64,000 bases of DNA from positions 711,123-775,122 of the forward strand of contig CM082586.2 in NCBI GenBank assembly GCA_040954595.2. Direction: 5' to 3'. A program made the position numbers and the translations under genes. The stretch comes from Balanoglossus misakiensis (Eukaryota > Animalia > Hemichordata). This document shows positions 1,054-41,674 of the stretch, piece by piece. A model generated the notes under the pieces. That model had not been told where the DNA came from. It was given only the letters and a program-made list of their open reading frames with translations, and ran no database searches. Each line of letters opens with the position of its first letter. Within the stretch, counting starts at the first letter, position 1.

Positions 1054-4000
1054 ATCACCATCTCCAGAGCCTATTTATAACAGTGAAGGTAAACGTCTGA
1101 ACACGAGGGAATACAGGACAAGGAAGAAGATTGAAGAAGAGAGACATAAGCTTATACAAGAAGCCCTGCAGTTGAACACAGAGTACAAACCACCATCTGA
1201 TTACAAGTAAGCTGGAGTAGTTGTGCTGTTTTCTATAGGGACATGCTTAATAAATCACATCAGTGAAATTCATGTACTTTCTATTGTCGCTCAAGTAAAT
1301 TGTCCAATTTTACTTTTTGTCTTCCAGACCTCCTGTTCAGAGAGTAAGTGACCGAGTCATGATTCCACAAGATAAACATCCTGATATCAACTTTGTAGGT
1401 CTTCTGATTGGACCAAGGTAAGTTGCCTTTCAGTATCTGATTTCACTTCAAGAAAAAGACCTCCAGTGAATGATGTCCATGACATGAATATGCATAGACA
1501 CCATCTTCTTCTGCATACAGTGCCTTTTGAAATACAGCTGACTTCTGAAGTCTGCCAAAGAAAACATGTCTGACTTATTTGTTCCAGAGGTAACACCTTG
1601 AAGAAAATGGAAAAGGAGACATCGGCCAAGATCATGATTCGTGGCAAAGGTTCTGTTAAAGAAGGAAAAGTTGGACGCAAGGATGGTCAACCCTTACCTG
1701 GAGAAGATGAACCATTGCATGCTCTTGTTACTGCCAATAATGCAGAGAGTGTGAAGAAAGCTGTGGACCAGGTAAGGCAACTGTGAGGTCTTTAAGGTGT
1801 TTTTGTGTTGGTTATCTTGGGATTGAGTTTCATCTAATGTTGGTCCACAGGTTGACACACAATGATTCCTGACACCAATATCCTGTCAATCACCAGATAT
1901 TTGACACAAGTTAACATCCAATAATAAATTTACAATGCACCAAAATCATATGTTTTTATTTTGAATGTACTGTGTGTCTTTATATTTGCTGTAAACTTAT
2001 TTCGATGGTTGTTACTTGTCTCATGTGCATATTTTTTTTCTTTACACCACAATGCATGCAGTTGTCAAATTTTGTTATATTTCCCACCTTGGTGTGTCTA
2101 CATTGCATATAGCTGTTATTATTTTCATCCCTTCTTGTTGTATCTCACTGGCCAGTAAAAATAGTTTCTTCGAAGTTGAAAAATGAACATTAGTCCCAGG
2201 CTGATCCAAAATTGACCGTATGGGGGTTCAGGGGTCAATGTACTTGACGCTGGCCAACTTTGACACCATCCGTACAGATACATTTGTTCATTTGGAAATT
2301 TGATTTGTGTGACTAAAATGGACCGTGTGTACTAATGAATTTTGTGAAAATAAGTTTTGCAAAGCAACTATTACTAAAGTTTGATTGATTTTCGCTGTAC
2401 TAATTCAAACTTTTCCATTGATCCATACTCACTAGCATTTTGTTTCTTTTGTAGCAGTTATCGTAGCCAGGTGTAAAAAAGCAAATTATGGCAGCTTGTT
2501 GCCACCATAAACATAGGATCAAGATGTATAGTCTACTCAGACTGCAAAAGATGGGAAAAAAGTTACAAAGAGATTTGTCAACAAAAATACTTTTTCATGG
2601 CAACTGCTGAATATTATTTCATTTCTTAGCTCATCGTTGTTTTGTCATCCAAGTTAATTCAGATGTCAGATTTTTGTACTAATTTTATTTTACCTTTTCA
2701 GCTAGCTATTTGTACTTATACGTATTTTTATTTCTATCTAGCTGAGTGTAGAACCACAGTTTTTGCATTTGTCTCCATTGCTGACTATAGACTACCATAG
2801 CGATATCTGTTATGCAACACCCACCCACTCCTGCCTATCACCTCACCCCCTCCACCCATCCATGGAATGCTGTTTTTCTGTTCACAGCCTACTAAAAAGT
2901 GTCTCCATTCCACGGTTTTGGTGTTCTGACTTCATGGGATGATTCTTGGCCTTGGTGTTATTATCGTGTCAAACTCAAAAGTCGTCTTTATTCAAATCTC
3001 CAATAATCCTTCTGAATAAAACAGATGGTTCTAAGTCTCTCTGAATGCTAGTCACTATGATAAGCAACAACCCAAACTCTGAAGACAATAATTGAGTGCC
3101 TGTAAGAAATGATATCTTCTTCAAGAAGATTGTTGAAACAAAATCAGTATAATGCAATTGATATTTGCCCCCCAACCCCCTGCCGGCCCAGGCCCTACTG
3201 ACGACATGTGCCAGATCACATATCTGTCTCTCTCGTAGATCAATGAGATCATCAGGCAGGGGATAGACACACCCGAAGGACAGAACGACCTGAAGCGTAT
3301 GCAGCTGCGCGAGCTTGCAGCACTCAACGGTACTTTACGTGACGCGGAAGCTGTAAGGTATTTGTGGACGTACTTATATTCTCTTTTTTTCCATCCCCTT
3401 CTCTCCCCTCGTGCTGTCTTGTGTCTGTGTTTGTAGATCAATGAGATAATCAAACAGGGAATCGAGACGCCTGAAGGCCAGAACGATCTGCGTCGCATGC
3501 AACTACGGGAGCTTGCCAAACTGAACGGCACTCTACGAGAGGATGACACTATAAGGTTCATTTGGTTTTATTTCTTTGGTGTGCACTTTTAGTTTTAATG
3601 TTGCCAGCATTTGATATTCGGTGTGTATGTTGTCTTTTCAGTGCCTCGCTTCCCCCAAAAACAAAATGAAAAATATTGGAAAGTCAGGAGCACATTTAAT
3701 TGAATGCCACTAACAGCCAATGAAATGGCAGCATTTCCATTAATGTTTCATGATCTCCAGTGACTGACTAGCAAATTAAAATGATTAATTTCTTGATCAA
3801 TCATGAGAAAGTGAACTTCACAGAAGTGGACATCAGATCTTCAAAATCACATTTTATATTTAAAAACTATAAAAGCACATTAGCCGAAATTCTTGTTTTA
3901 GTCCTGGCGGGTACAGAGTGTCATCTGTCAGCCAATAGAGGATTATTAGGAGTTCACCTTGGACCTGTGGAGCTTCCTCTGTTGTGATTGGTCCATAACC

Positions 4001-7000
4001 ACTAACAATTTTGTGGCACTGAAAGGACGCAAGACAATAGGTGTAGAGAGTTGTATTGCCTCTGTGGTTGTACTTCAACCTATCCCACCTCTTTATTCCA
4101 TGTACTATGGATTGGCCCATCATATCTTCATGGTGGATCAATCTATTTTCCATGTGAAGAGGGGTGGGAAGGTAGAAGAATGCATGCCTCCCCACCCAAC
4201 CCCTAATCCATCCATATAATACCGGTATTTTACAAATTGGTTTTGCATGGCCTCTTACCAATCTTCGCCAATGATTACCATGTACATTGATGGTACTGTA
4301 CTTTGTGTCATTTCGTCTTTTTTGGCATGCAAATAAAAAAATGTACTTTTCTGACATGAAAAGATTCTGAAATCCTGAAAATTGGGAGGAATGTGTTTTA
4401 AATTACAGTTTAAATTGCACTGTAGATTCAGTTGGGGAAAAGGTTAAAACAATATCTATAAAAGTTCGGTATCAGGGAATTTTAAAAGAAAAAAAAACAC
4501 TTTGCGCTGGTCACCTAAAGAATTGATGTTTACCAACTGCAATTATACAAGTTCAATTCTTCAAGATTTTGATTTTTGTGACATGGTAAATTGATTTGAT
4601 TTTACTGCCATGTAAATAACAATAAGGTAAGTAAGATAATGGAAATCATGTAATACTTGAAGTCCAGAGTACAAGGGACAATGCTGTATTTATTCCAGAT
4701 AACAGTATTTTAGTTTCAAGAAGATACAGCAGTTTGTGTTGAAGACGTCACAGAAAAATATCAACAAACATATGTAATTCATTACCACTGCAATGTGCCT
4801 ATGAAGGAGAAGCAGAAAAGCTTGATACGTGTAATGTATTTGGTTTACAGAATGACTGATAGAATAACAATCTCTAAGTGGCTTTATTATATCACTGATT
4901 GGCTGACTGACAGAGGAGTTTGTTTAACTGACAGGTGCACCAACTGCGGTGCCAGCAGTCATCGTACATGGCAATGTACGGAACGACAGAATATCACAAA
5001 CACAGTGCAGTGTTCACAGTGTGGAGGAGCTGGTCACATCGCTGCTGATTGCAGACAGAAGAGAGACAGAGCAGGAGGATTTGGCCCAACGAATACAGTG
5101 GATAAAGCCAAAATGGATAGTGAGGTGAGTGTTTCTGAGCTGGTGCAGAGATTTCTCGCATGGATAATTATTCAGTTCTGTGGCTTCCCTGTCAAGTGTC
5201 TTTCTGAGTGAATGTTCATACTGTGGTATGTAGAAAACCTTATACATATAGTTTGGGAACATAATATTTTTGTTCTTTCTTTCCTGCAGTACTTGTCACT
5301 GATGGCAGAGTTGGGAGAAGGTCCACCACCTCCTTCAGCACCAAGCAGCATGTCCAGCCATCATCATCATCATCATTCATCGTCTGGACCGAGACCGTTA
5401 CTCTCTACACCTGTTAGTCATCACCCTCCTCCATTGGTGAATATTACACATTTAGTCATGCATGTCATCTAACTCTAACCCTGTACCCCTCAGCCATCCC
5501 GAAACAGTGTCTCTGGACTATTCCATTAGGAAACTGAGGGGTTGCAGGGTAAAGTCTGTAGTTGTGTGCTGTGCATCTGTTGCTAATAACGTCAAATGCA
5601 CACACATGTTCATGCATGCATACATACATAAGTACCTACGTACATGCATTCATACATTGCATACATACAACTTTCTGTGTTTAGGCATTGATAAATTTCT
5701 AAATAATAGTATTGTGAAAAGTTCTTACTTGAGAGTGGTTTCTCGTATTGCTTGAGTGAAAATGCTGAACATGGGAATGTAAATCCAATTGCCTCAACAG
5801 ATGAGCCAGAACACACCACCCCCCTGGATGCAACACAAACAAGACAAGCACCATAACTCAATGGACAATAGACCTCCCAGTCTGCTAGGCTCTGGACCGA
5901 ACCAACCACCAAGTCTTATGTCACAACAAATCGGGCCCCATCATAATATGCCTCCACCACCCCCGTCAAATCAGCATTGGTCTCAACCTCCTCCACCTCC
6001 TTCAAATTCAGGTAAGCCAGATTGTTGTATAGGGGAGTATTATTTCCATACCTGTTGTGAAATACAACTCTCATAGATTTGTCGGTTTGATGGTTTGTCT
6101 TTCTTATCTCTTGCAGTGCCACCGCCTCCACCACCCTCATTGCTGGCGGCACCCCCACCACCACCTCCTCCAACCAGTGAACCCCCGCCACAAATGTCTA
6201 CCAGTCAGTCATGGCAAACAAGTAAGTACAACATGTCTGATCCGACAAACAGTGATGGTCTTGACTGGACAGGAAAAAGAGTGTGGGCCATGGCTTTCAT
6301 GATAATGTTTTATTCTGGGACAGGTTTCCGAAACAAAGTAGAATGTGACTTGGGATAACAATTGCTAACTGGATGTTTTTCCTGTTATCCAATGCAGGCA
6401 ATGCTCCAACGTTAGCTACAAGTCATTCTGGTGCACCGCCACCCTGGTACCAGAATCAAGGTACTCAGAATGCACACACAAACACACAGTGCATGTTCTG
6501 TAACCGTGTTGGTTTGTGTAGTTGTGCAGTGACCCCAAATTATCCTTAGTCACCTATTACCCAGGCCGAGAAAATTATTCCACTGTAGTGTGTCATGATT
6601 GATAAGTGGTATAGTTACACCAATATTGACTGAAACCTTGTCGTGTGTGACACTTATTTATGACCTCACTACCCTGACTGAAGGTACAGTGGTTGAGTGG
6701 ATAGGCAAAGTTTCAACCTTCTGATGTACTCGGCCTGATCACAAGCAAGTCGTTGTAAGAAGGAAACTGTTCTTGAACTGAACAGCATAAAGCAGATGGT
6801 TTCAAAATTCTTCATGCACCTTCCGTCAGGGTTGAGGTTTATATCAAGAGTATGCACACACAACTGAAAATGTTTGTCTGATTGAACTTTTAATGCACCA
6901 TCTCAGTTCTCAAAAATCTCAAATATTTTTAACTTTCAGGTTCGTCATCGTCAACATCAAGCTCAGCGATGCCACCACTACCACCATGGCAAGTACCACC

Positions 7001-14000: not shown

Positions 14001-14323
14001 GTACTGCCGGTACTATTATAATTTCGTCCATGATGTCGCCCAGCACAGTCACCGTTGCTGAATCCATGCTACATCATACAGCAAAAACAAAATTGCCACG
14101 TGTGAAACGGAGTACCTTGCCATGCTGGAGGATGCATGCTGGGGGTGTACTTGCAACCATCATCCAGCTGTGTCAGTCATTGAGTACCGTTTGAGGGCGC
14201 CCCAAAGTGAACTTGGGGTGTTCTTATGCAAATGAAGCTATCTAATTAATCTAATCAAATTGCTCATTTCTTTGCAGTGTTGAAACACTGTTCACCACTG
14301 GACTTGGGGAAATCTGATTCATC

Positions 14324-17209
14324 ATGACTTCCAACGAAATGGACAGATGTAATGTTGATGCATCAAAAGATACGGGTGATGAGACCAAGCAGGAAATTGG
14401 AGGAAGCACGGATGGAGTTACTCTGAATGCAAAGAAGATGAAAGACAGGGAGAAGAGTTTTGTTTGTGAGATTTGTCATGCCACATTTGGGAAAAAGTGT
14501 GGGCTGACATCACACGCAACAATTCATGACACAAGTCCGAAAGTCTTCAAGTGTGAGCGCTGTCCCTTCAAGGCAAACAGAAAGGTCAACTTGGGAAGAC
14601 ATATGGTGAAACACCGAAATCAAGAAGCAGTTGCTAAGAGATTTAAATGCGATGTGTGTCCGTATAGGTGCCGTCAGATGTCACATTTGCTTTGTCACAA
14701 GAGAATTCATAGTGGGGCTAAACCCTATAAGTGTAAACTATGTGACTATGTTGCAAGACAGAGTAGCCACATCTACATGCACATGAGGACACACCGTCCT
14801 GCAAGTACCGGTAGAAGTAAAAAGCGTCGTCAAGAATCAGAGAAATCGAAAAATAGTGAACATAATGATGACAAGAAAAAAACTTTCAAATGTAAGTACT
14901 GCGACTATACAACAGGCTTTGCGAAGAACTTCAAAATTCATGTGAGTAAGAAACATGAGAAGCGACCACCTGGCAAACCGTATAAATGTGATATGTGCTC
15001 TGTGTCTTGTCGTTATTCGTTCAATTTGACCGTTCATAAAAGAATTCATACGGGGGAGAGACCATATAAATGTGAGTTGTGTGATTTCGCTGCAGCACGG
15101 AGTGATACCGTCAAAGTCCACATGAAGAAAAAACACCAGAAAAAGCACAAGAATTCAGAAGCTGAAGATTCCCTCCACATGAAGAAAAAACAACAGAAAA
15201 AGCAGCTCAAGAATTCAGAAGCTAAGGATTCCCTCCTCATGCAGAAAAAACAACAGAAAAGGAACAAGAATTCAGAAGCTGAGGATTCCTTTTTCGAATG
15301 TGAGATGTGTTCCTTTACTTGTCGTTCCCCGTTGAAGTTCAGACTCCATCAAAGCAAACACAAAAATCCCTTCACATGCAAGTTCTGCAGTTACGTCACC
15401 TCACGCGTCTCCTGTATTAGAACTCATGTGCAGAGAAAACACAAGAAGTTACAAGCTGTGAACAAACTTTATAAATGTGATGTCTGCGCATTTGCAAGTC
15501 ATCGGCCGTGGACACTGAAAATGCACAAGAGAACTCATACGGGCGAAAAACCCTACAGATGTAAACTCTGTGATTTCGCTTCCGCGCAAAGCAGCAACTT
15601 CAGAAGTCATATGCAGGTTAAGCATAAAGATCAAAAACCTGAAGAAAGCACATGTACATATAAATGTGATTCATGCTCGTATATGTGTAACAGTCCAGGG
15701 AGTTTGAAACGGCATCAAAAAATTCACTTGGTAGACCAACCCTTCAAGTGTAAATACTGCGACTACTCTGCCCCTCACATGAAAAACATCAGAATCCATA
15801 CAAAGAAGAAACATAAGAAAGAAGTAACAGTTCCTGTACCAAGACGGCACAAATGCGATATCTGTTCATATTCTTGTCGCTTTCCAGGAAATCTGAATGC
15901 CCATAAAAAGATTCACGCCGTTAGCCAGTCCTTGAAATGTAAATACTGTGATTTCATTGCAGTTAAGAGTAAAAGTATCAAAATTCACATGAAGAAGAAA
16001 CACAAGAATGAAACGGTCACAAAATCATATCAATGTGACCTGTGCCCATATAATGGTCGCTTTCTGGCAAATCTGATCGCTCACAAAAGAATTCACTCCG
16101 GTGTTGACAAGTCTTTCAAATGTGTGCACTGTGATTATGTTTCAAGTCAGAGTAAAAATATGAAAATCCACATGATGAAGAAACACAAGGATGTATCTGT
16201 TCAAAGGCCTTATAGATGCGATATGTGCTCCTATACCTGTCGCTTTCCTCAGAATCTGTCTGTCCATCGAAGAATTCATACGGGTGAGAGGCCCTTCAAG
16301 TGTGCTCTCTGTGACTACGCTTCAACTCAAAGTAGCAACTTCAAAAGACATATGATGAGACACGAAAGCGAAGAGAAGAATAACTGTGCCCTCAGTAAAG
16401 TGAAGCGCAGTGGAGATCATGCAGTTGTACCGACTGAAAAGAGATATCAGTGTTTCACGTGTAACAGCTCGTTTGAAAACAAGCTTGATTGGCTGAAGCA
16501 TGTGAAAGAATTCCAATGTAATTATACAAGCGGAGAAGAGCACGGTCGAGACGACCCTGGAGAAATCGGCAGCCATGCTCGATCTGAAGAAACTCTGCTG
16601 GAATGCAGTCGGTGTCCGTTCAAAACTTTGAACTCTTCCGACTATAAAGCTCATGTGGCTCTGCATGAAAACTACAAATCCTTCGATTGTTCATTATGCA
16701 AATATGCGACTCCATTTGAACTGTTGTACAAGGACCACATGGAGGAACATTTACAGCAGGTTGACATTGTCAAATATTTTGATAAGCGCAGTAAGAAGTT
16801 CGTTTGCAAGTTGTGTGATCAGACATTCTCAGATGTGAGTGAACTTGAGGTCCATCTTGAATTGCATCTGGCGGATGAAGGCAATACAGAAACCAGACAT
16901 TCACCGGTGAATGATATGAGGCAAGGATTTGAATCTTTCAGTGAAAGTGATGTATTGACCCAAAGATGTGAGGCTCCTGATTCTGTGAGAAATATTCCTG
17001 AAACATGGATCATTGGGGAAAGCATTACAGATCTGAGCAACGAGGAAGTAGAGGCGTTTATGAAACAGGAAGAAGGAAATCAAGACAAACCTTTTGTTTG
17101 TCAATATTGTAACAGAGGCTTTGATGAAAACAATGTATGGCAAAAACATGTACAAAGACATTTTATGAAATGGCCAACCAAAAAAATAACTTCTTACTCA
17201 CATTTTTGA
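14324..17209 (+). CDS. Multi-C2H2 zinc-finger protein, 961 aa, single coding exon
   Basis: More than 20 CxxC..HxxxH fingers with TGERPY/TGEKPY linkers; acceptor at 14277; probable non-coding exon ending near 13832. Confidence 0.95.
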   Translation: MTSNEMDRCNVDASKDTGDETKQEIGGSTDGVTLNAKKMKDREKSFVCEICHATFGKKCGLTSHATIHDTSPKVFKCERCPFKANRKVNLGRHMVKHRNQEAVAKRFKCDVCPYRCRQMSHLLCHKRIHSGAKPYKCKLCDYVARQSSHIYMHMRTHRPASTGRSKKRRQESEKSKNSEHNDDKKKTFKCKYCDYTTGFAKNFKIHVSKKHEKRPPGKPYKCDMCSVSCRYSFNLTVHKRIHTGERPYKCELCDFAAARSDTVKVHMKKKHQKKHKNSEAEDSLHMKKKQQKKQLKNSEAKDSLLMQKKQQKRNKNSEAEDSFFECEMCSFTCRSPLKFRLHQSKHKNPFTCKFCSYVTSRVSCIRTHVQRKHKKLQAVNKLYKCDVCAFASHRPWTLKMHKRTHTGEKPYRCKLCDFASAQSSNFRSHMQVKHKDQKPEESTCTYKCDSCSYMCNSPGSLKRHQKIHLVDQPFKCKYCDYSAPHMKNIRIHTKKKHKKEVTVPVPRRHKCDICSYSCRFPGNLNAHKKIHAVSQSLKCKYCDFIAVKSKSIKIHMKKKHKNETVTKSYQCDLCPYNGRFLANLIAHKRIHSGVDKSFKCVHCDYVSSQSKNMKIHMMKKHKDVSVQRPYRCDMCSYTCRFPQNLSVHRRIHTGERPFKCALCDYASTQSSNFKRHMMRHESEEKNNCALSKVKRSGDHAVVPTEKRYQCFTCNSSFENKLDWLKHVKEFQCNYTSGEEHGRDDPGEIGSHARSEETLLECSRCPFKTLNSSDYKAHVALHENYKSFDCSLCKYATPFELLYKDHMEEHLQQVDIVKYFDKRSKKFVCKLCDQTFSDVSELEVHLELHLADEGNTETRHSPVNDMRQGFESFSESDVLTQRCEAPDSVRNIPETWIIGESITDLSNEEVEAFMKQEEGNQDKPFVCQYCNRGFDENNVWQKHVQRHFMKWPTKKITSYSHF
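15120..15290 (+). repeat. Three tandem 57-60 bp coding repeats in ZNF gene 1
   Basis: HMKKKHQKKHKNSEAEDSL / HMKKKQQKKQLKNSEAKDSL / LMQKKQQKRNKNSEAEDSF; the DNA unit aagaattcagaagct occurs three times. Confidence 0.85.
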
Positions 17210-17287: not shown

Positions 17288-19233
17288 AGGTGATAATGGT
17301 TGCATTAGAGTTTACAGTGATTTTGACGAAATTTCACCCATTGAGACAAGTTTATCTGTCTCATGCTGACACTGATCCAGATGAAGCTGTAATGTCAGCG
17401 GTGATTTGTATCCAGTTTGTGTATTAAATGTGTATTTTATTCATTTTGACTTGAATTTCCAATATGAATGCTGAAACTCAAGAATTTATGTTTTTGATTT
17501 TTTTTTACTTATTCATGTATTCCCACTGCCAAAGTCGATTATATTTTCAGTTATTTAACAGTAGTTATTAACAAGATAGAAACTAACATGTTGACTAACA
17601 AACTTTGCTCATTAAATCCTGGAAACAAAACAAAAGTGTCAAATAGTATTTGGTGAGAGATTTCAGCAATTTATAAGCACACGGTGTGAGGTGCTAAGTG
17701 CATTTTTGTTGAAATTTACATATTCAAGGTACATTTTTGTAGAATTTTGAGTGTTTAATACCAAGAAATAAACTTTCTATTAGTATTAATGACAGCCATG
17801 TGTCTTTGTATCTTCATATCAGATCACTTGAATTCAATAGGACGTTCACCATTGTGCGGATACTGAGAAACAAAGTAATCCATTTGAAGTATTCTAGAGG
17901 GCGCTACCACAAACCCAGCCTCGCTCGAGAACCTGGAATATATTTTTGCATACGTTTGGCATCAATTTCCTAACCAGCTAACAGTTGCTGTCTATTGTCA
18001 GCTAAGGAGCACATACAACTTTGTGCTTTTGTCCTGCATGTTTTCTCTTGTGCAAAAGTGAGGAAATATATACCGCAAGTGCAGAATGAGATGCATACTT
18101 CGTCATATCATTTACTTCACTCAGAATGCAGCAAGTTACTGTCACGGGGTCGATAACAGACAGGCGATCAACATTTGTATTTGCAGCTGGCCCTGCCCCC
18201 CTACCCCATGCCCCAATTTGAAGGGCAAGTCAGCGCGACCCATGTGACCTTCCAGGAAAAGGGTTTAGCAAAGGTCAGTGGCTGTACCCAGCATGCCGTG
18301 TGCTTCTGATGGCGTCCCATTCTGGATGAGTTGGAGGGGAATTTTGGTAAGTTTTTAATCGAAGTTTTCTGACTTAGACGCAGGTGACTGGGTTAACATT
18401 CAAGTTTTGATCAGTCTGTGTAATGACTACGGTGATTTCAGGGTCTGTCAGCGCGTACGTCGCTTTCAGCCACAGACCTGTTGACCGGTCGGCCTCGACG
18501 AGTTAGTCTGGTCTAGACAAATTCCGATACACACTCGAGGTGCGAGTTCACGACGCGACAACTTGTTGCTGCAAGTTTATTTCGAGTATGTTCGGTCTAG
18601 TAATTACGATCTCACATATATTGTGTTTCACATATTGCGCACACTGCGTCAGTCGATGGTTTCTGAAGTTAATTTCAGCTAGTTTTAAAACTTCTCAGCA
18701 TGGTAGACAAGTTGGTAAGAACCCGGATGTTCGATGAGTAATCACGTGACTGATATGTCGTGCAATCAACATGCAACATGGGTCTTCAAGTAATCGGTTA
18801 CAATCAATGCAAAAAAAATGGTGCAATCTTTTCAAATTATCAATCATATTTCTCACAAAAATCGAGATTTAACAGTTTTATTAATTTCCATTGTTAGGTT
18901 GGTATTTGCATAACAATATTATGAGTTGACAAAAATAAATAAATGGGTACTTTTTATTGATCCCTGGTTTCCGATTACTTCTTGTCGATGTGTTTTTGTT
19001 TTAGAAAGCATTTGTTTTTTTATTTAAATATTTATCAGCTGAACCCATTTATATTTTGATAAAAAAACTACAATAATTGATTTAAATATGTTCTGAAAAA
19101 TTCTGAAACTTATTCTCAAGTGATGTCCATATCAGAGAACTTATCGCTTTCAACCATCTCTCATTTGTTCACAGTTCAACAAATTCAACATTAAATTCTT
19201 TAATCCGGAGCTTTAGGACTCGGCCGTGTCAAC

Positions 19234-20916
19234 ATGTCTTCCAGTGATGTAGATATCTGCACTGTAGATGCAACAGAAGATGGTGAATTGGAAGAAACCA
19301 AAGAAATAAAAAGAGAAGAGTTAGATTCTGATATTGATATGACTACATTCAGTCCAGTCACAGCCAAGGTAACTGATGCTGACGTGATATTTCCGTCCGA
19401 AGTGGAAATGACGCGTACGTACTCATGCCTGCTTTGTGACTTCAGCTGTGATGCGAGAGATGACATGGAAGAACATCAGAAAACCCACTCTGGAGCGAAA
19501 TCTTTCCACTGCAAATTCTGTTCATACAAGACAACCCAGGAAGGGAACTTGCATCGACACGTACAGACACATCTACGGATGAAACTCTTCAAGTGTTCGT
19601 ATTGTGACTTTGCGTCGCCTCACAGACCGGTTCTGGTCAACCATGAACGGGTGCACACTGGGGAGAAACCTTTCAAATGTGACCAGTGTCCCTACAGCTG
19701 CCGACAACAAGGTCATCTGGTGTCACACAAGCGAGTTCACTCTGGAGACCGACCTTATAAATGCAAGCATTGTAACTACGCCACATCACAGAGCAATCAT
19801 TTGAAAACACACATGAAGAGACATATGGGAATCCGACCGTACCAGTGTAGTTACTGCAACTACAGTTGTAGAGAGAGGGGCACTTTGATCATCCATCAAC
19901 GTATACATACAGGCGAAAAGCCTTTCAGTTGTAGTCTGTGTGGCTATCGCACCGGTCGCAAATCGCACTTACAAGAACATTTGAAAACGCATACAGGAGA
20001 AAAACCTTATAAGTGTGAGATCTGTGATTTTTCCACCGCTCAGCATCCACATATGATTATGCACACTCGCAAGCACACCCGCGAAAAACCATTTCAGTGT
20101 GAGGAATGCCCGTATCGAGCGATGTGTCCCAGTGCACTGAAAGTACATCGCCGAATGCACACATGCAATGAAGCATTCAAATGTAGATTCTGCACCTTCT
20201 CAAGCAGCCGACAAGTGTTTGTGAAAAATCACATTGCACAGGTACATGCCCTGACAGAAGCACTTGAATGCGACAGATGCCCTTTCAAAACTTATGAGAT
20301 GTCTGACTATAAAGCACACGTGGAATTGCATGAAAATCACAAATCCTATGATTGTACACTTTGCAAGTATTCAACTCCTTTTCAAATCTTGTACAACAGA
20401 CACAAGGGTGAGCATTTGAAAAAAGCTTCAGAGTATTTCAACAAATCCTGCATGCGATATTGTTGTAAGATGTGCCCTTTCACATGCACTGATGCAATCG
20501 GCATAGAAACTCATCTCAAGACACACTCAGACAGTACAAACACTGGCTTACCATCTCCCAGTGTTGGTGCCCTACAAAAATCAAAGTACCAAAGTAAGCC
20601 AGAGTCTACATTGATATATCCATCTCATGAAAACGGTCCTTTCATCTTGAACGGGAGCACTCCAGACTCTCCAACTGAAGCAACTGTGGGAACTCTCCCA
20701 GACGTGCCTATAAGTGCAGATTGTTCTGTGATACCAGTCACCTATGAAAGCATCACGGATCTCACTAATGAAGAAGTCGAGGTCGTCATGAAACAGGAAG
20801 GAGCCAGACCAAACAAACCTTATGTTTGCCAATATTGTGATAGAGGATTTGATGACAACAATGAGTGGCAAAAACATGTACAAAGACATTTCATGAAATG
20901 GCCAACCAAAAAATAA
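19234..20916 (+). CDS. Multi-C2H2 zinc-finger protein, 560 aa, paralog of 14324-17209
   Basis: Tandem fingers with HTGEKP linkers; shares C-terminal modules with the upstream gene; donor at 18346, acceptor at 19173. Confidence 0.95.
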   Translation: MSSSDVDICTVDATEDGELEETKEIKREELDSDIDMTTFSPVTAKVTDADVIFPSEVEMTRTYSCLLCDFSCDARDDMEEHQKTHSGAKSFHCKFCSYKTTQEGNLHRHVQTHLRMKLFKCSYCDFASPHRPVLVNHERVHTGEKPFKCDQCPYSCRQQGHLVSHKRVHSGDRPYKCKHCNYATSQSNHLKTHMKRHMGIRPYQCSYCNYSCRERGTLIIHQRIHTGEKPFSCSLCGYRTGRKSHLQEHLKTHTGEKPYKCEICDFSTAQHPHMIMHTRKHTREKPFQCEECPYRAMCPSALKVHRRMHTCNEAFKCRFCTFSSSRQVFVKNHIAQVHALTEALECDRCPFKTYEMSDYKAHVELHENHKSYDCTLCKYSTPFQILYNRHKGEHLKKASEYFNKSCMRYCCKMCPFTCTDAIGIETHLKTHSDSTNTGLPSPSVGALQKSKYQSKPESTLIYPSHENGPFILNGSTPDSPTEATVGTLPDVPISADCSVIPVTYESITDLTNEEVEVVMKQEGARPNKPYVCQYCDRGFDDNNEWQKHVQRHFMKWPTKK

Positions 20917-22319: not shown

Positions 22320-23781
22320 GTAAGTGAAAAAATCATGCAAGGTTGAAAAAATTGTGAGGATTTTTAAATGTCCATCTTATTTAAGGGTTTTATGCATCAG
22401 TTTTAAAACTGACTGTGTTGTCACATATGGGTCCCCTCAGTTTGATTATTTTTAACACCATAATATATTTCTTCCCTTAACATTTCTTTTTTCTGTACGA
22501 GTGTCAATTTCAGTGTGCATATGAAAATCAGGAATAAAATCATTTTCTGAAATGTTGAATGCATGTTTTGTTTTTTATTTTTCGGTAAAAGAACATCGAA
22601 TTTTCACCCATATTTTTCCTCAAAATAAAATATTTAGATTTCTATCAGAGTACTTATTTATTTGCTTTAATTTTGGGGGTGTAAATGTTTGCCTTTTTGT
22701 CGTATACTGTACATGGCAATCCGTTACTGCGCCCTCTTGCGGTTATGATTTGGAACACTAACGTTTGAAAGCTGATACTGGGCGCGTGTATATTGCTTGG
22801 TGTGAGAGAGTGCCCAGTGTAAATCGCAGTTGTGGAGCGGACTTGTGCCTATCTCTGAGTGTTTGTCAACCGATGAATGTGTAAACAGTTCAGATTGTTC
22901 CGTAACTACCTACTAGTACTTTACACCGGTGAAGTAGCTATTCGGGTAACTGATCGTGGATCAACGGAGGCGTGGGGCGTGTATGTTTGCAAGCAAACAT
23001 TTTGGAATCGACGAGGCACTGCAGTGAAAGTTTTGACGAAGATTGTTGTAATGGATTCCCAGAAGATGAAGCGACCTTGGTGTGATCATTCTTCTGGAAA
23101 CGTTGAACTTCGACAGGCATGATGTGTCATTACTTGTCGGCTTTTGAGGTAATGTAGATGTTTTCAATCTCTGGGACGCGAATTCTCACAAGCGAAAGGA
23201 AAGCGGAGATAAGTGTCTACAAAGTTGGAATTGATCACTGCTCTGTTTCTGCGTCCATCGAACGGGTCTCGCATACTACAGCGGAAGTTTTGAAAACGTC
23301 AAAACTGTGGCGAGCTGTCTGCATTGTCCTTTCCTTGCATCCGGAGAGCAAGAAAAGGGGCTGGAAATACTTGTGTGCGCCTATGAATAGAGCTCCGCGA
23401 CGCATGAATAAGAAAACTGACAACCCGTGAATAGATCCGACGGCCGACTGGATACTGTACAGTTTCAAACAAGGCATACTCCGGCGATCCACTCGAAAAC
23501 ACTTCTTTGTGGGACGTTCTGCCGCTCTGTGGATGTATGGCAAAGTTTGTAAACTCATGCGATCTGTGATCGCTACTCAGCTAGACTTTCTCCAATGCTA
23601 GCAACATAGATGCAGTTGTTGGAAAGTGTTCCTACCGATTGCGATTCGCTTTGTACTGACCTCGGAGTAATTCGATCTTGCCGATTATAATTTCGAGTCG
23701 GCTTTGTTTTCAACGTTGACAGATACCTCCGTGCCAGCCAGCACACAAGTTTATATTTTCTTTTCGCTCTGACTGGACAAT

Positions 23782-26700
23782 ATGGCCGACGCTGGGAAGA
23801 TTGTTGCGGTTTTCACGGTCTTAAGTTTCTTCTGTCAAGTTTTTGCCAGCGTCGGCGACAACTGTAAGAAAGCGACAACGTGCGAGCCACTGGAAACGGA
23901 TTTATGCCTTGGGACAAAATTGAGCCACACACATACTTCGACTATTTTGGCGAACGATTCGAACTCGCAAGACGATGTGAGGGTGAAGCTTGCCTTGTGG
24001 AGAGGTCTGCAAAATGTTCCCCGCTGTTGGGAGGTCATCCAACCGCTACTTTGTGCCGTCTACATGCCTAAATGCGAGAACGGTTTCGTCGAACTGCCAT
24101 CCATGGATATATGCTCAGTTACCAGAGGACCGTGTAAAATTGTTGAAGTCGACAGGGGGTGGCCATCTTTTCTACAATGTGACCAAGATCATTTTCGGGA
24201 AGGATGCGATGTAAGTAGTCAAATATATTTGATAGTGTAAATTTACAGTCGCGCGTGTGAGTTTCCGTTACGACCATTTAATTTGATTAAAATGTCAATA
24301 AGTTGGGCGGTGAATATATTTACTCTTGTGTTCTTATGTGTGAAGAGTTCAGGGGACACTGTAATTATCTTGGAAACAAACAGCTGAAATTGACGCACAT
24401 TAAAGAATTATGTAACTTTCAAAATTGACACATGGTTTATTGAAATCGACAACTTTTCGGTACATTGTATTCTCGATCACTGGAAATCGATACAAATTGT
24501 GTCTTTTTTGTCCATTAGCTTACGTTAGTCCTCCGATTACTTGCGCATTGCTGGCCATTACGCACGGCAATCAAGGTGTGGAAAGAATTTCCTGTTAAGA
24601 ATAAAAGTTTATACAAATGACAGGAAAACGTAATAAAAAGAGTCATTTATGTTATTAAGATCTATAAGGATGAGTCACTTTATCTTAATAACCGTGGAAT
24701 TCCAAAGATTTAAAGGATAATTGTAAATATATGAAATTATCAATAGTAATGTCTAACAAGACAGAAAAAACTAAAAAATCGTTTCCCTCTTGGCGAAAAA
24801 CGATGACTAAATTTCGTGATGGGATAAGTTGATATGCCAGTAACATGTTCAATAAAACTGAAGGATGCTGTCTTGAGTCGATGGTTCCTTTGTGATTAGT
24901 TTCGTGCATGGAATTTGACAAGACTCTGTCAAAATACTTCAAGACATCCCTTCCTGAATCGCTATTGTTCTTGCTATTGTTGTTGTCTTCTTATTCCCAT
25001 GTTGTTTCATTGTTTGTGAAACAATGATCTGAAGTCTTTTTGATTGGTCAAACATGGCAGAGGTTCGTCAGGTCTACCCAGCATGCATCAGCATTGCCAT
25101 GGTATTACTCATGCATACATTTTGAAGTCACAAAACTGAATTCTGAATATTAGCTTCTTTGATGGTTTTGTGACACCTTTTTCAAGGGTTTGTGTTTGGT
25201 CAAATAACTCAAGTACCTACTATGTTATACAAGCATTTCAATTTGTTTATTTTAGATTTACAAGCAGTTTGACAGAATCCTGTAAATTACTGTTTTCTGC
25301 AGCAAGACAACATCATCTGGTAGCAGAGTGAATTACTTCTGGGTTTAACCACACCCCACAGATCCCTCAAAGTTTTGTTTTACCCTCAAATATTAATTTG
25401 TCTTTCAGAATACCTATGCTCAACTCACCTTCAACACAACATCTGGATGTGAGCCACCATTAGTGGAGACAGATAATGACAACAGTTGGTATGAGGGCGT
25501 GGAAGGATGTGGAATTCAATGCAAAAATCCCTTGTTCACTGACAAGGAACACGATCAAGTTCATTTATTTATCGCCATCATGGCTTCAATATGTGTGGTG
25601 TGTACATTTTTCACCTTGGTAAGTAATTTTATCCAAAATCTCATGAAGTCTATTGGTTAGTCACTTCGGTTGATAAGTGAAACCCATTCATATCTATATT
25701 CTGTGACTGTGTGTAACTATGGTGCCACTAAGATCAAGTTTGAAATGTCTGCATAACAATCAGTGGGTCCATGCGTCAAAAATGAGATTTAAAAGACATA
25801 TTTGGAAAGGCAAAAGTGTTTTTCTTTCCGTTCATAGAAGGAGTGTGTTTTCAGAAAGTTGAACTTTTGACAACATTGTTACTTGAAGAATTGCCTCCAT
25901 TTTGTTTTCTATGCCCGGAGGCTGGTATTCATATAGCGTACATGTGCCTTTCCAGTTGTGTCTAAAGAATTCTGTGTTCTGCATATGAATGCAACAAATG
26001 GCTATTTTGTGGGTGTTTAGCATAACAACTGCAGTCGTTGGAGCTTGCAACAATGGCCGCCCAACATATGAGAAGACAGACCACCCACTAATACCTTACA
26101 TTAGACGGGTAATTATAGGAGAAAAGTTGCAGTCCGGCGTTTTCTAACCAGTACCGTTGCCACAGAGACACAAAAATCCCTGCAGCATAAACCTTATAAC
26201 CGCGTAGATAGACAAGAAAGTAGAAACTGATCTTCGTAGTTGTTACAGTCAGACACAAAACAGATTAAATCTTGCCTGCAAACAGTTCACTTTGTATCAG
26301 TGATGGCTAGAGTTTTAAATTTCTACTCCTTGTTGTTTTGGCCAGACAGCGATTATGTCATGAAATACTACGTCACACATTCTTTTGAATGTAATGAAGC
26401 AGAATTTACTTCTTATTCTCTGCCGAAGCTAAGTTTAAATTCATCTGCATATCTTGAAACACAAAAATAGAACCAAGGAGGCGAAACTGGCAAACAGTAC
26501 AGAATACAAAATATTGATACTATGTTATTCAATAAGTATTCCCAGAATTAGTTTGATGGTCCATTACCAAAATAAAAACTCATTTTCAAATGAGCATCTT
26601 TTTTATATCAACAGGCAACTTTCTTTGCTGATTGGAAGAACTCCAACAAATATCCAGCCTTGATCTTATTTTACATGAATGGTTGTTTCTTTGTTGGGAG

Positions 26701-29690
26701 TATCGGGTGGTTGGCGCAATTTACAGAAGGTGCTCGCGATGATATCGTCTGTCGGAGAGATGGAACTTTACGATTGGCAGAGCCAAGGTTAGTCTCTTTT
26801 AGGCTTGTGCTGAGGTTGGAACAAATCCACCAAAATCCTAAGCTTTATCCTGAATCGTCTCAAATTCCGTAATTTGATCTCAAATGTTTCCCTGGTGGTC
26901 AGGGTTGAACTTTTGTGCTTTCAGGTGAATCCAAGTTTACGATTTCTGTTGATTTGCTGCAGCTGTTGGGGACCTTTTGTATTCTAGTGATACTTAGACT
27001 GTTGCAAACACACGACACCAAATCCACTTTGGTCATAGTTGAGTGAGAGTGGAATGCGCTTTATATTAAATGATTCTTTATAGCATATAGCATAGCTATC
27101 CACAATCACATGTTGCAAATGGCCATGAATATTAAGTGAAATAAATCTGAAATAAATCTTTTTCTTTTACAGCCAAGGTGAAAACTTATCCTGTGTCATT
27201 ATCTTCATAATCGTTTATTATTTTCTGATGGCTGGTGTGTCCTGGTTTGTCATGCTGACCTATGCTTGGCATCTGTCTTTCTCTAACCTTGGTACTTCCA
27301 AGGGTGATGCTTTGCAAGGAAAGGTTTCATATTTCCATATCATTTGCTGGAGTTTGCCTCTGGTCTTGGTGATTATCATATTAGCAGTGGGAGAGGTAAG
27401 ATTTTCAACCAATTGCTAACATTTGAATTCTTTGTGGTCACTTTAAACAATTTCAATTTCAATGGCAACCAAGTGCTTCAAGTTGATTGTCTTTGTGTCA
27501 GTCTAATATTTTCTATTCAATTTATAGGTTGATGGTGATTCAGTCAGTGGTATTTGTTTTGTGGGATACAAGAATCATTATTTCAGAGGAGGTTTCGTCT
27601 TGGCACCCATTGCAGTTGTTCTCACGGCAGGTGGCTTCTTCCTAACCAGGGGTAAGTTCAACTGAACAGATATGATTCAAAGCAGTCCCAACATTTCACA
27701 CCACAACAAAATTGATGATTTCTAGATTTGCTAGTTTTGTCATGTTAGATTGTAAAAATGACTTTTTAATTCTTTTCCATTGTAGGACTTGCCACTCTGT
27801 GCAGTGTTAAAAAGAGCAGTCCGGAACTCTTGAATGACAGAGCATCTCATAAAATCAAAGAGACCATTGTAAGGATCGGTAGGTGAACAAATTCAATAAT
27901 GATACACAATTTTGAAATTGCTTTTTATCAAGTTTTGTTTTGGTAAAAATGTTTATTCTCAATGAAATTTTTGTTTTTCTACCTGCAGGAGTTTTTGCGT
28001 TATTGTGTTTCCTGTTTGTGTTTACAACATTTGCGTGTCATGTGTACGACTTCAGTAACCAACATCTGTGGGAGATTGGCTTCAGAGATTATATTCTGTA
28101 AGTACAATTTATGTTTAGTTGGATTTACTTTTCCGCTCAAATAAAATCCTATTCTCTTATGTCTGCATGCTTCTCATGACAATTGAATCAAGCTAAAAGG
28201 GAATGGATGATTAATATTTTTGTTGAAAATTTATTTTTGCTGCACATTTAGGTGTGAGGCCAATGTTACCATCTATAAGGAGCTGGACATGGAACCTGTA
28301 ACTTGTTCCATCAATCCTAGACCCAGTCTGGCCATCTACCTTGTCCATCTTGCTTCTTTGTTTGGTGCCGGAATTGTAATGAGCACATGGGTGTGGACAC
28401 CATCAACTCTTCAAATATGGCAGAGGATGTGGAGAAAGTGAGTTGATGAATTTTTCCTTGATGGCTTCTTTTATTATTAAACCATTCTCAATAACTTCTT
28501 TTGGTAAAAAAGGGTAAGATCGTTTAATTATGGAAGTCAGTGGTCAATCCAGTTGCTGAAAGTACAAGTAAATATTTTCTTACTTCTGACTGTCTATAAC
28601 ATTGTTTATCATTATCTCTTTTCTCTGATTGGTTCATTCCTTGCCACCAGGGTCACAATGCAGCCAATCAATGAACCTCAACGAGTGAAGAAGAGTCGAA
28701 TGATTGCTAAAGCTTTTGCCAGGAGAGTCAACAGAGGAGGTGATGAAGTCTCAGATGATGACAAGATATCCATCAGTTTTGAAACAGTGTCTCATGATGA
28801 TCCATTAGGTAATATGTGATTTAGTGGTGACTGCTATATTATTTTCATTCTGTCCTTTTGGACATAGTTCCATGGCTGCCAGTATTCACGTCAACATAGC
28901 AAGAGTTCATTTTACATATAGAGACTCAGTATGTACATGAACTTTAATACTCTTTCCCTTGTTTGTCATTTCAGGAATGGATTTAGAACTGAACAAATCA
29001 TGTACTTCCACGGACAGTTCATCTCAGTGGACCAATGTTCCCATGAGAATGTTGACCAGACGAGGTGCCACTGTGTTGCCTCCCTCTTCTTCTACATCAA
29101 CGACACCAACACCAGGTGAATATAGACAGAAAGAAATTTAAATACTTTCCCAGATTTTATGGTTTCTTTTACCAATTCTTCATGAAAATGTACAGTTATT
29201 AATTGTTTGATGCCGGTAAAATTTTATTGTGGTTATTTTTACCATAAAATCTCAGTTGAAATATATTTTGTTTGTCATCACAGAGCCATATGACTGCAGA
29301 CAATTAACACCAACAGAACTTCCAGAAGCAAGTCTGATTATTGAAAAGGGTAAAGACAGAAGTCCCGTGAAGAAACACAAAAATCGAACACGGAAGAAGA
29401 AGCGAGAGAAACCAATGCAGAGCTTCCATCGACCGACAAACTTGATCAGCGAGCAACATGTGTCAGACAGTGCTGAAGATTTACAAGCAGACTTTATTCT
29501 GATGGGCCCCAGAGTTTCAGGAATCTCACAGAATGTGAATGGAGATGAGCCAACAGAATCTACCTCAGTGGATGAGAACAATCGATCAACTGTGCCAAAG
29601 TTACCTGCAATTAGTCACAGAAGAGTCAACATTGTGGGTGGAATGGAACCACTTAAAGTACTAGGTCTTCCTGGTCAGAGTGATACTTAA
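23782..29690 (+). CDS. SMO: Smoothened (class F GPCR), about 11 coding exons
   Basis: Signal peptide, CRD ([27 protein letters not shown]), [49 protein letters not shown]. Confidence 0.97.
26079..26087 (+). promoter_or_regulatory. Perfect GLI consensus site in SMO intron 2
   Basis: GACCACCCA; variant GGCCGCCCA at 26055-26063. Motif match only. Confidence 0.35.
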
Positions 29691-37550: not shown

Positions 37551-40500
37551 CGATGATAATGACAGCGACAACTCTGAGTATTGGCCGGATACAATTAAAC
37601 AGATGCTATCGGAAAGTAAGCTAATAAAATTTTCCAGAATCTAGAATCTTTTTCCAATGCCTGGTTTGGATACATCATCTAAGAAAATTGAATTGGGTTA
37701 CTACTTTTTTCTTGCAGCGGACTCACTTGGGTTGACGGCCAAAGAAGACTGTGAGTTGGCTATCAGTGCTTTGGGAGCCATAACATGGTAGGAATTTTCT
37801 GTCTAGTGTGAGTGGGCAAGAAAGTGAATCAAATGGCTAAAAATCATGTTGACAAGCAATTTGTGAATTTTAACAAGTGACGATCTTTCACTCTGCTTTG
37901 TCAAGGTATTTGAAGAAGTGTTGTGTGGAAGAGGATCTGTTATCGATGAAAAACTTCACAATATATAAACCTGTAGATAGTCAGAAACCAACACAGATAC
38001 AAACAACGTCAGCAGATTTCACCAGAGGTCGACATCACATGGTAAGCTGTAGCTGTCACATGTTGTTATTTGATGCGGAATGGTTTCCAAGTTGTTGGGC
38101 ATTATTGAAGACTATGATTCTGTGAAAGAGTTTTGAAATTCTGTCTGTTCTTTCACATTTTGGCATATTGTCTAACACACCCAGGTGCTAGATGGTGTAA
38201 CACTATCCAACCTTGATGTAATTGATAATGGAGCTACAGGTACATCGGAAGGAACATTGTTAGAGAAACTTGACAGTTGTACAACTCCATTTGGAAAGAG
38301 ATTGTTGAAACAATGGCTGTGTGCACCTCTCTGCAATCCCAAATCTATCAATGATAGGTAAGATTCAAAGTCATTTGACTTTCATGTCATTTGATTTGAG
38401 TTCATAGTCCAATCATTCCATTGAAACAACAGGGCTGAACCAAGTTTTGTGTAATAAAGGATTCCAAATCAATTACATGTACTTTGACTTCAGTTTTAAT
38501 GCATTTAATTTTTCTGTAGGTTGAATGCTATTGAAGATTTGATGGCCGTAGCTGATGTTACTGCTGAGGCTAAAGAAATGATGAGAAAATTACCAGATTT
38601 GGAGAGACTGCTCAGCAAGTTAGTGTGATTCAAAAAGTCATTTCATCTAGAATGATAAATACTGAATAATTTTGATAAAGTTAACTTAATATTGCAGTTG
38701 TCTACTAAAGCTTTTCTAAAATTTACTTCATCCATGATTTTTCTCTTGCTCAGAATTCACAGTCTGGGATTATCCCGGAAAAATAAAAAACATCCGGACA
38801 GCAGGGCCATATTCTTTGAAGAAGTTGCCTACAGGTCAGTGAGATGTTTGTATTTTTTGTATTTATGCTTAGAAAAATTAATGGTATTCCATAGATACAA
38901 TAAGTTTCCTTTTTTCCTTTTTCATTTCCCACCAGTAAGAGAAAGATAGAGGATTTTCTTGCAGCCCTACAAGGATTTAAAACAGCTCAGAAAATCATGA
39001 AGCTTTTCAAAGGAAAGAACTGTGATTTCAAGTAAGTAGTGTCTGTGTGTCTCAGGTCACCATAGCAACATTTCTTGTATCCCAGATCTGTGTGCAATAT
39101 TGTTGTTTCTGATCAAATGCATTTGTATATTTTGTTTCTTCTGAAGATCAAAGCTACTGAAGCAATCCACAAGTACTGCAAGTAAAGAAAATCCCAAGGG
39201 TGCTTTCCCTGACATGAAAGAACAGTTGGATTTCTTTGATGTAAGTCTCACCCAACCATATTTGTAATTGGTTGAATCGAATCTCCACTTGTAAGAAACG
39301 TGTAAGAAATAAGAAACTTGTATGACTTTTACAGAGTGCATTTGATCACAGCAAAGCCAAATCTGTGGGTGCTATCATTCCAAGCCAAGGTGTTGATGAT
39401 GATTACGACACTGCATGCAACAATATCAAATCCCTTCAGAAGAAACTTGACCAGTATCTTGACAGGCAAAAACAGAGACTGGGTAACAGGGTAAGTCTGT
39501 CTCAATGTCAAGTTCTGTGCACTGCAACAAAATATAATCTGTTTGATGTGATTATGCATGTGTTTTAGCCAAATGACCTCTTGTAATGTACATCTGACAT
39601 CATTACTAATCACATGATTTCCATTCAACCAATCAGAGTCTGTCTTTCTGGGGAACTGGTAAAAATCGATACCAGATGGAGGTTCCGGAGTCTGCTGTAA
39701 AACATGTTCCGGATGAGTATGAAGTGACATCGTCCAAGAAAGGCTGGAAGAGGTACACCACTTCCGCTATCCAGGAAATGTTACAAGAACTGGTAGCACA
39801 AGAAGAGAAACGAGATGCTGCTCTCAAAGACATCATGAGGAGAATTTTTGCGATTTTTGACGAACAGTAAGTCATCTCGTCATCCCTCATTTTATCACAC
39901 TATTCAACTGATGTCCACGGTGCTTTTGATTGTTTAGTTACTCTTCAAACAGGTGCACGAATGATCCCCAAACAGGCCCTGAACATTGTCCCTAATTTGC
40001 TACACTTATTTCAGCTACACAGCATGGGAAACAGCTGTCCAGTGTCTGTCAGTGTTGGATGTGTTGATGTCACTGACGCATTACAGCCAATCAGGTGAAT
40101 GTGAAATGTGTCGTCCTGAAGTAATAGCGCCTTCTGGAGACATAAAGGTAGGCAGGTAGTCTTTGTTTGAATGTAATGAGATTATGTTTGCCTGTCCGTA
40201 TAACTTGTCAAATAACTTCTGTCTTCCTTTCCTTTTCAGCCCTTTATCTCCATCTGTAATGCAAGGCATCCATGCATCGTCAGAACCTACAGTGGAGGTG
40301 ACTTCATTCCAAACGATACCTATATCGGCTGTAGAAATGTTAGTATCACATTTTCAAAATTTGTCGAAGAAATTCTCAATTATTTTCAAATCTGCTTTTA
40401 CCTTTTTTATCTACAACACAAATGTAAAATTTCTATTTCTTCACCAGGAAGGGGATGAAGACAGCAGCAGTGATGACACAAGCACTTGTGTCCTGGTTAC

Positions 40501-41674
40501 AGGTCCAAATATGGGCGGCAAGTCTACTCTTATGCGTCAGGTTGGCTTAGTGGTGATCTTAGCTCAGTTGGGTTGTTATGTTCCTGCAGAGTCTTGTAAG
40601 ATGACTCCAGTGGATCGAGTTTTTACAAGACTTGGTGCTAGTGACAGGATTATGTCAGGTATGGTCAAAGTATCCTCAACATGATTTTCTCATCTTATCT
40701 TGAGGGAGCCATGAATGATATTATAAACTTTTGAGTGAGTGAGATTTGATTTGATCGATATTAATTTTGTGTTTCAAGGTGAAAGTACCTTCTTTGTGGA
40801 ACTGAGTGAGACATCAGCAATATTGCAACATGCCACAGCCCATTCATTGGTTCTGATGGACGAACTTGGTAAGTGTTTTATTTAATCTAAGAAATACAAA
40901 TATGGTCATATGATAACCAGAGATAATAGGATACAGCATAAAGTGATATTGAACAAACAAAACAGCATGGACCATGGTTTCCATTTGGTTAAAATAAATA
41001 TTGACTGGCCTATCTTGATTCCACACAGGTCGAGGAACTGCTACATTTGATGGTACCGCCATTGCTTGTGCTGTTGTCAAGGAGATCTCTGAAACCATCC
41101 AGTGTCGTACCTTATTCTCAACTCATTACCATTCATTGGTTGAGGAGTTTTCCCATGATACAAACATACGATTAGGGCACATGGTAAGGCATTCACTATG
41201 GCTGTGTTATCTGGTCCAAGATAGGAAATGTGTTCCAAATTTGTCATCTTATTACGTTACAAATACATAATTCTTTTTTTTCATTTTCAGGCATGTATGG
41301 TCGAGAATGAAAATGATGAAGATCCTAGTCAAGAGACTATCACATTCCTGTATAAGTTTGTGAAAGGAGCTTGTCCAAAGAGTTATGGATTCAATGCTGC
41401 AAGATTGGCAGGTTTACCGGAAGAGGTAATTAACAAGATGAGAAGGCCAGGGGAATAAATCCTCCATTTCTATAGTTTGTCTTAGAACAATTTTTTTATC
41501 ACAATTCTGTATTAATCTGTTCTCTTCTTCTAGGTTATCTGCAAAGGTCAAGCAAAATCTCGGGAATTTGAAGCATCTCTGGACAGACTAAAAGTCTTCA
41601 AGCGCCTCTCAACATTGGACAAGACCATTGATAAGAATAACTTACAGTCACTGATTGGTCAGATCGCTGTTTGA
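33749..41674 (+). CDS. MSH6: DNA mismatch repair protein MSH6
   Basis: N-terminal PIP box [12 protein letters not shown] domain ([12 protein letters not shown]), [10 protein letters not shown] mismatch motif, Walker [31 protein letters not shown]. Confidence 0.98.
36375..36468 (+). mobile_element. ~90-bp MITE copy 2 (MSH6 intron)
   Basis: AACCCT...AGGGTT termini; shares aaggttggacctctata-aggga with the copy at 47500. Confidence 0.7.
37519..37557 (+). repeat. Coding (GAT)10 microsatellite within a 13-Asp run in MSH6
   Basis: GAT x10 then GAC GAT GAT. Confidence 0.9.

Follow-up and report, generated by a model that had tools for sequence, protein, structure and literature searches.

A probably mutually exclusive pair of QUA2 exons in the SF1 gene of the hemichordate Balanoglossus misakiensis, with a counterpart in a brittle-star-like metagenome locus

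Organization of the SF1 locus

The window, i.e., the whole stretch of 64,000 nucleotides of Balanoglossus misakiensis contig CM082586.2 analysed here, holds part of an SF1 gene, whose N-terminal exons lie upstream of it. Two exons, A and B, both coding for the QUA2 helix, are found in tandem between two constitutive exons, the second of which carries cysteine motifs that we take to be zinc knuckles (Table 1). A domain listing gives PF00098 for relatives.

Elsewhere in the window, we noticed several other features, among them two zinc-finger-like frames that are likely tandem paralogues, and a gene with a Frizzled domain that presumably corresponds to Smoothened (Table 1).

Table 1. Coordinates of the features of the SF1 locus, of the related metagenome locus L001 and of the remaining part of the window
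Feature	Location	Strand	Description
Upstream exon	1588..1771	+	constitutive; C-terminal part of KH domain; donor joins A or B; start (1588) read from the sequence
Predicted branch point of A, TACTGAC	3196..3202	+	A at -38; one mismatch to the yeast consensus
Exon A	3239..3357	+	QUA2 helix, Lys19-Arg20 (yeast/cnidarian type), Ala28
A/B intron	3358..3436	+	no AG before acceptor; 41 A-free bases at 3394-3434
Predicted distant branch point of B, TACTTAT	3371..3377	+	A at +19 from the A donor, 60 nt before acceptor
Exon B	3437..3555	+	QUA2 helix, Arg19-Arg20 (bilaterian type), Lys28
Downstream exon	4935..5124	+	constitutive; two zinc-knuckle-like cysteine motifs
A' (counterpart of exon A)	L001:1755-1873		119 nt, AG/GT
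B' (counterpart of exon B)	L001:1997-2115		119 nt, AG/GT
Single-exon frame	14318-17209	+	long; C2H2 zinc-finger-like repeats; C-terminal motif common with next frame (by eye)
Single-exon frame	19204-20916	+	long; C2H2 zinc-finger-like repeats; C-terminal motif common with previous frame (by eye)
Frizzled-domain gene	23773-29690	+	Frizzled-domain exon plus later exon
MutS exon	40160-40684	+	MutS domain V
Ras-family exon	48275-48832	-	Ras-family GTPase
LINE-like frame	51845-53356	+	503 residues, resembling a reverse transcriptase fragment (by eye)
GPCR frame	54477-55448	+	single-exon, rhodopsin family

The paralogous exons described in the original prediction were confirmed in all structural details, including the quoted peptides: both are 119 nt long, flanked by AG and GT and open in frame, with a phase-0 start and a phase-2 end, and only 79 nt of intron lie between them. 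When 1771 is joined to either A or B and this in turn to 4935, the SF1 reading frame is maintained into the first zinc knuckle. The frame shift expected upon inclusion of both exons or of neither was also found, with stops at 3447 and 5046, respectively, while retention of the 79-nt intron leads to a stop at 3434. A and B are identical at 89 of 119 nucleotides and 30 of 39 amino acids, the codons being divided into 14 identical, 16 synonymous and 9 replacement ones. The resulting values (dS about 1.5, dN about 0.15) agree with the proposed old duplication under purifying selection. Such a pair is not due to chance, since a repeat finder detected a single 125-nt repeat at 76% over it, and each exon matches human SF1 with E-values from 1e-11 to 2e-15. 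A third QUA2 copy was not found in the window by tblastn.

Isoforms in related species

The exon A peptide is a 100% match to an SF1 isoform of Ptychodera flava in RefSeq. Among the seven SF1 isoforms of this species, which are automated models and not reads, three contain the exact A peptide (X2, X4, X7), four the exact B peptide (X1, X3, X5, X6), and none contains both, in accordance with the predicted mutually exclusive use. Transcripts presumably underlie these models, and we regard A and B as almost certainly a true mutually exclusive pair. The flanking exons are likewise identical to those of P. flava SF1 at the protein level (61/61 residues over 1589-1771 and 62/62 in the downstream exon), while the proline-rich exons diverge, with, for example, 40 of 48 and 58 of 71 residues identical. 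Segments matching the 7-residue and 21-residue stretches of the proline-rich tail that vary between P. flava isoforms were observed at 5416-5436 and 6398-6460.

Membership in the SF1/BBP family is indicated by the SF1 helix-hairpin (PF16275) and the BBP-type KH domain (PF22675), both above cut-off in the two types of P. flava isoform and followed by QUA2. The best structure matches of A and B are 1K1G and 4WAN.

The B peptide is identical in Glandiceps and differs at a single position in Saccoglossus (38/39). The A type was not found among 36 annotated proteins of other ambulacrarians: it was absent from the four Glandiceps and five Saccoglossus SF1 proteins, all of which carry B, and from the 27 named proteins of echinoderms that have the motif (two fragments lacking the motif were left out), which share one B-like type. 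B is likely the default form of the protein, and A a minor or restricted one.

Affinity of exon A

The tail of exon A had been described as Quaking-like, a resemblance that did not hold as a sign of affinity. Quaking/GLD-1 QUA2 sequences do have in common with exon A the Lys at the base-reading site and the RD tail, but A is far closer to SF1, with 46.5 bits against the human SF1 compared to 27.2 bits against Quaking, and the protein that contains it has the helix-hairpin of SF1 and a KH domain of BBP type. Based on these scores, an origin of A from the Quaking/GLD-1 branch was rejected. Exon A is about 80% identical to coral SF1, and its signature, K..AAL..RD, is also present in coral, placozoan (Trichoplax-like), choanoflagellate and fungal SF1.

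A protein search with the short A query returned six proteins, all of cnidarian type, and no further copy of A. Likewise, no new A-type ambulacrarian protein was detected among the best 150 of 327 matches in a search of 50% clusters. Four proteins with two copies (P0001, P0153, P0309 and P0358) were discarded, as their internal repeats are identical and likely represent gene-model or assembly artefacts. Two others, P0314 and P0332, each contain in one read-through frame two tandem QUA2 segments of Quaking/HOW type with intron-like sequence between them, and the segments of P0314 differ (KKMQ and KKRQ). Duplication of the QUA2 exon may recur in the Quaking branch.

A related exon pair and the age of the duplication

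A metagenome scan for the SF1 QUA2 yielded 80 loci, with two copies in one of them (L001) and a single copy in the remaining 79, most of which were fungal, protostome-like or spliced. In several protostome-like loci that contain introns, the KH exon is located 53-112 bases upstream, leaving no space for a second copy. A narrower metagenome scan with a two-exon alignment detected no relative. L001 is one contig without flanking exons, in which the A-type copy comes first, as in the window, and the copies are 123 nt apart. Among 426 proteins, the B' peptide is identical only to SF1 of Amphiura filiformis and to one other protein, and the locus can thus be considered brittle-star-like.

A' shares Arg6, Asp10, Lys19 and Ala28 with A. 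Residues 6, 10 and 19 are fully informative, and all three group A with A', while none groups the exons by species; a tendency toward the same grouping is seen at residues 28 and 38, and one in the opposite direction at residue 2. The comparison of A and A' (pS 0.90, dN 0.17) points to long constraint on A, adding to the case for an old duplication under purifying selection. Since A-type and B-type copies follow each other in L001 as they do in the window, the duplication is likely older than the split of echinoderms and hemichordates, which took place over 500 million years ago, and on these sequence comparisons we consider an ambulacrarian age of the A/B duplication highly probable.

In a tree of 34 rows built on only 39 columns (LG+G4), A and A' are sisters (74/91), and B and B' are placed in a group of 22 rows together with protostome and vertebrate rows (92/94); a further member of this group looks like a jellyfish protein. 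Outside it fall the coral and anemone rows that bear names, as well as A and A'; neither the A/A' branch nor the 22-row branch was starred, and the A' branch is long (0.61). The AU tests rejected no alternative (four tests, p 0.20-0.47), including a species-specific duplication (p 0.27 and 0.20). Separate duplications in the two lineages, which afterwards converged, would accommodate these tests as well as the long A' branch. According to such a scenario, the cassette would be younger than Ambulacraria and A may decay in echinoderms; the lack of A in annotated Saccoglossus, Glandiceps and echinoderm proteins, and the seeming recurrence of QUA2 duplication in Quaking-type genes, would fit in as well. 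We nevertheless find it quite improbable, because order, length, layout and an intronic heptamer (described below) are common to both pairs, three informative residues stand against none, and A' has intact splice sites and a dN of 0.17 at saturated dS.

Probable mutual exclusion of the two exons

In regard to the mechanism that could keep the exons apart, the intron between A and B has an unusual composition. Its adenosines are restricted to positions +3, 11, 15, 19, 21 and 36 and to the acceptor itself, and it is AG-free for 77 nt. The + strand of the window contains a single 41-mer without A, and AG-free 77-mers occupy 1.3% of window positions. TACTTAT is the only match to yUnAy in this intron. 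In the intron of L001, TACTTAT likewise precedes the pyrimidine tract, with its A at +33, and an internal AG is absent; further yUnAy matches, at +84 and +89, lie beyond the steric limit. The sharing of the heptamer is only modestly significant, as shuffling produced it 310 times in 5000 (127 times in 5000 when counting the first 56 nt).

The excerpt of PMC5740500 used here gives a donor-to-branch-point distance below about 50 nt as the criterion for steric interference, which applied to 57 of 629 human clusters. The passages available from PMC7969005 describe the same features in exons 4a/4b of OGDH and 2/3 of Tpm1, namely a branch point less than 50 nt from the upstream donor, a long pyrimidine tract and an AG-free zone. 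There, the branch points were mapped, those of OGDH at 25-41 nt from the upstream donor, whereas the position +19 in SF1 is predicted and the intron is much shorter. As every possible branch adenosine of B lies within 36 nt of the A donor, U1 bound to the A donor and U2 bound to the branch point of B would not assemble together. Steric exclusion by a branch point near the A donor is thus the mechanism that we consider likely from the sequence. The frame shift would serve as a second safeguard: stray products containing both exons or neither have premature stops, and nonsense-mediated decay would eliminate them.

Docker-selector RNA pairing, as in Dscam, was considered and rejected, since neither the window locus nor L001 shows a strong inverted repeat pattern. 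The intronic comparison between the window and L001 gave no match better than E 0.12, and the fold of the 79-nt intron is weak (-4.5 kcal/mol).

RNA contacts and the likely consequences of the switch

The original prediction had proposed two SF1 versions with different RNA reading and had noted the loss of the basic residue before LNGT (residue 28) in A. The sequence comparison supports the idea of two versions but not a weight of this residue. At residue 28, yeast Msl5 has Glu and other sequences have Gln, Leu, Arg, Lys or Ala, and the position is not among the Msl5 RNA contacts listed in the part of PMC4338336 consulted. Those contacts align to exon residues 16, 19, 20, 22, 23, 26, 27, 32, 33 and 34, nine of which are the same in A and B. 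The A/B replacements are found at residues 6, 10, 19, 28 and 35-39, and residue 19, overlooked before, alone among the nine coincides with a listed contact. It corresponds to Lys252 of Msl5 and is Lys in A and A' and Arg in B and B'.

According to the same part of PMC4338336, Lys252 makes hydrogen bonds to U1 and to C3 of UACUAAC, and the affinity and specificity of the yeast protein are credited to its KR dipeptide as opposed to RK in human SF1, citing Garrey 2008. The yeast K252R mutation converts KR to RR, i.e., it is the same change as that from A to B. In the sections of PMC3378887 at hand, K252R alone grows normally, yet combining it with the tgs1 deletion is lethal at 25-30 C and combining it with the nam8 deletion gives sick cells, which is not so for R253K. 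For GLD-1, the K313R/R314K double swap is described in the cited part of PMC4081071 as reducing affinity 11-fold, Arg being in the authors' view unable to form the same bonds; the in vitro effect, known here through citing passages, concerns the KR/RK double swap and not the single RR form. By analogy with these yeast and worm homologues, A would form hydrogen bonds through its Lys19 with U1 and C3 of UACUAAC, which would raise affinity and 5' selectivity, and Arg19 of B would not. With Lys19 at the Msl5 Lys252 site, and considering the effects of yeast K252R and of the GLD-1 swap, A is likely the stricter and B the looser branch-point reader, and we lean towards a measurable difference in their binding.

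Alternatively, the two proteins could bind RNA almost alike, both being kept for a need of particular tissues or stages, or for tuning SF1 level via unproductive splicing. The identity of nine of ten listed contacts and the absence of a growth defect in yeast K252R alone (PMC3378887, in part) would be in line with this, and early stops in both unproductive outcomes would suit level tuning. We consider it unlikely, given that residues 6, 10, 19 and 28 distinguish A from B in both lineages despite saturated synonymous sites, and that K252R has synthetic effects (same source). It is still less likely that A and B differ mainly outside the RNA face, through a linker (residues 6 and 10) and a tail (35-39) that alter KH-QUA2 packing, the position of the zinc knuckle or a protein contact. 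Seven of the nine differences do fall at these residues, and the part of PMC4081071 cited above makes the case that the KH-QUA2 interface is important over and above a single residue; however, the tail differs between A and A' at four of five residues, while Lys19 is conserved. Taken as a whole, the reading that we moderately favour is of an SF1 gene with two tandem QUA2 exons, which the common ancestor of hemichordates and echinoderms likely already possessed, likely made exclusive by the near branch point, and likely coding for a stricter (A) and a looser (B) reader.

Relation to known systems

The contrast between yeast Msl5/BBP and human SF1, as far as covered by the cited part of PMC4338336, has its counterpart in the exon pair, A having the yeast KR and B an Arg at the first site like the human protein. 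There, the states are divided between species, while here both are present in one gene; moreover, B is RR and not the human RK. The link between the QUA2 dipeptide and a looser branch-point consensus previously rested on yeast versus human, so that both base-reading states in one gene offer a natural test, on the same background, of how SF1 stringency affects branch-point choice. Such a test would be possible in animals with embryo tools, for instance sea urchins, if exon A is kept there.

Tandem duplicated and alternatively spliced exons of a core 3' splice-site factor are also known from vertebrate U2AF1 (U2AF35), where, following the excerpt of PMC5224494, exons 3 and Ab resemble A and B of SF1 also in that one copy has weak branch points beside a long tract of pyrimidines. 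U2AF1 is, however, another gene in another lineage, and the SF1 pair swaps the branch-point-reading helix, toggling a residue with solved base contacts. SF1 would thus join U2AF1 among the core factors of the 3' splice site that exon duplication has diversified.

A description of duplicated QUA2 exons in SF1 was not found in full-text searches of the main text of freely readable papers. In the portions available, PMC5703972 does not mention SF1 and PMC8624252 does not describe such exons. The A and B isoforms are already present, unremarked, in RefSeq; what is new is the same pair in L001.

Candidate branch points of the alternative exons

In all four alternative exons, the candidate branch point starts with TACT, the part read by QUA2. 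The candidates are near-consensus for A and A' (TACTGAC, and TACTAAC at -55) and weaker for B and B' (TACTTAT), the window and L001 not being independent samples in regard to this pattern. A TACT start was absent from the best three candidates of each of eight other SF1 introns, some with approximate boundaries, and of 119 acceptor-like sites across the window, 5 had TACTnAy upstream. The consulted parts of PMC3061054 and PMC13004596 report that human SF1 binds ACUNAC and that SF1 and QKI compete for ACUAA branch points, respectively. Autoregulation, or control of the A/B choice by STAR proteins, is plausible from these motifs.

A wider scenario, which we put forward as speculative and rather doubtful, would see in A the pre-bilaterian QUA2 that has survived (Lys, strict) and in B the bilaterian one (Arg, relaxed). 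The duplication would have occurred in the bilaterian stem, with A lost in chordates and protostomes and ambulacrarians still switching, and the TACT-type branch points would form an autoregulatory loop.

Two minor observations concern the sequence behind exon B. TTTTAGTTT, with CAC before it, was found just 3' of exon B both in the window (region 3602-3615, approximate, within 60 nt of the donor) and in L001 (2144-2152); this motif is AT-rich and its recurrence may be due to chance. Two ACTAAC sites (Quaking/SF1 consensus), with none in the corresponding stretch of L001, are located at 3709 and 4001 in the intron following B.
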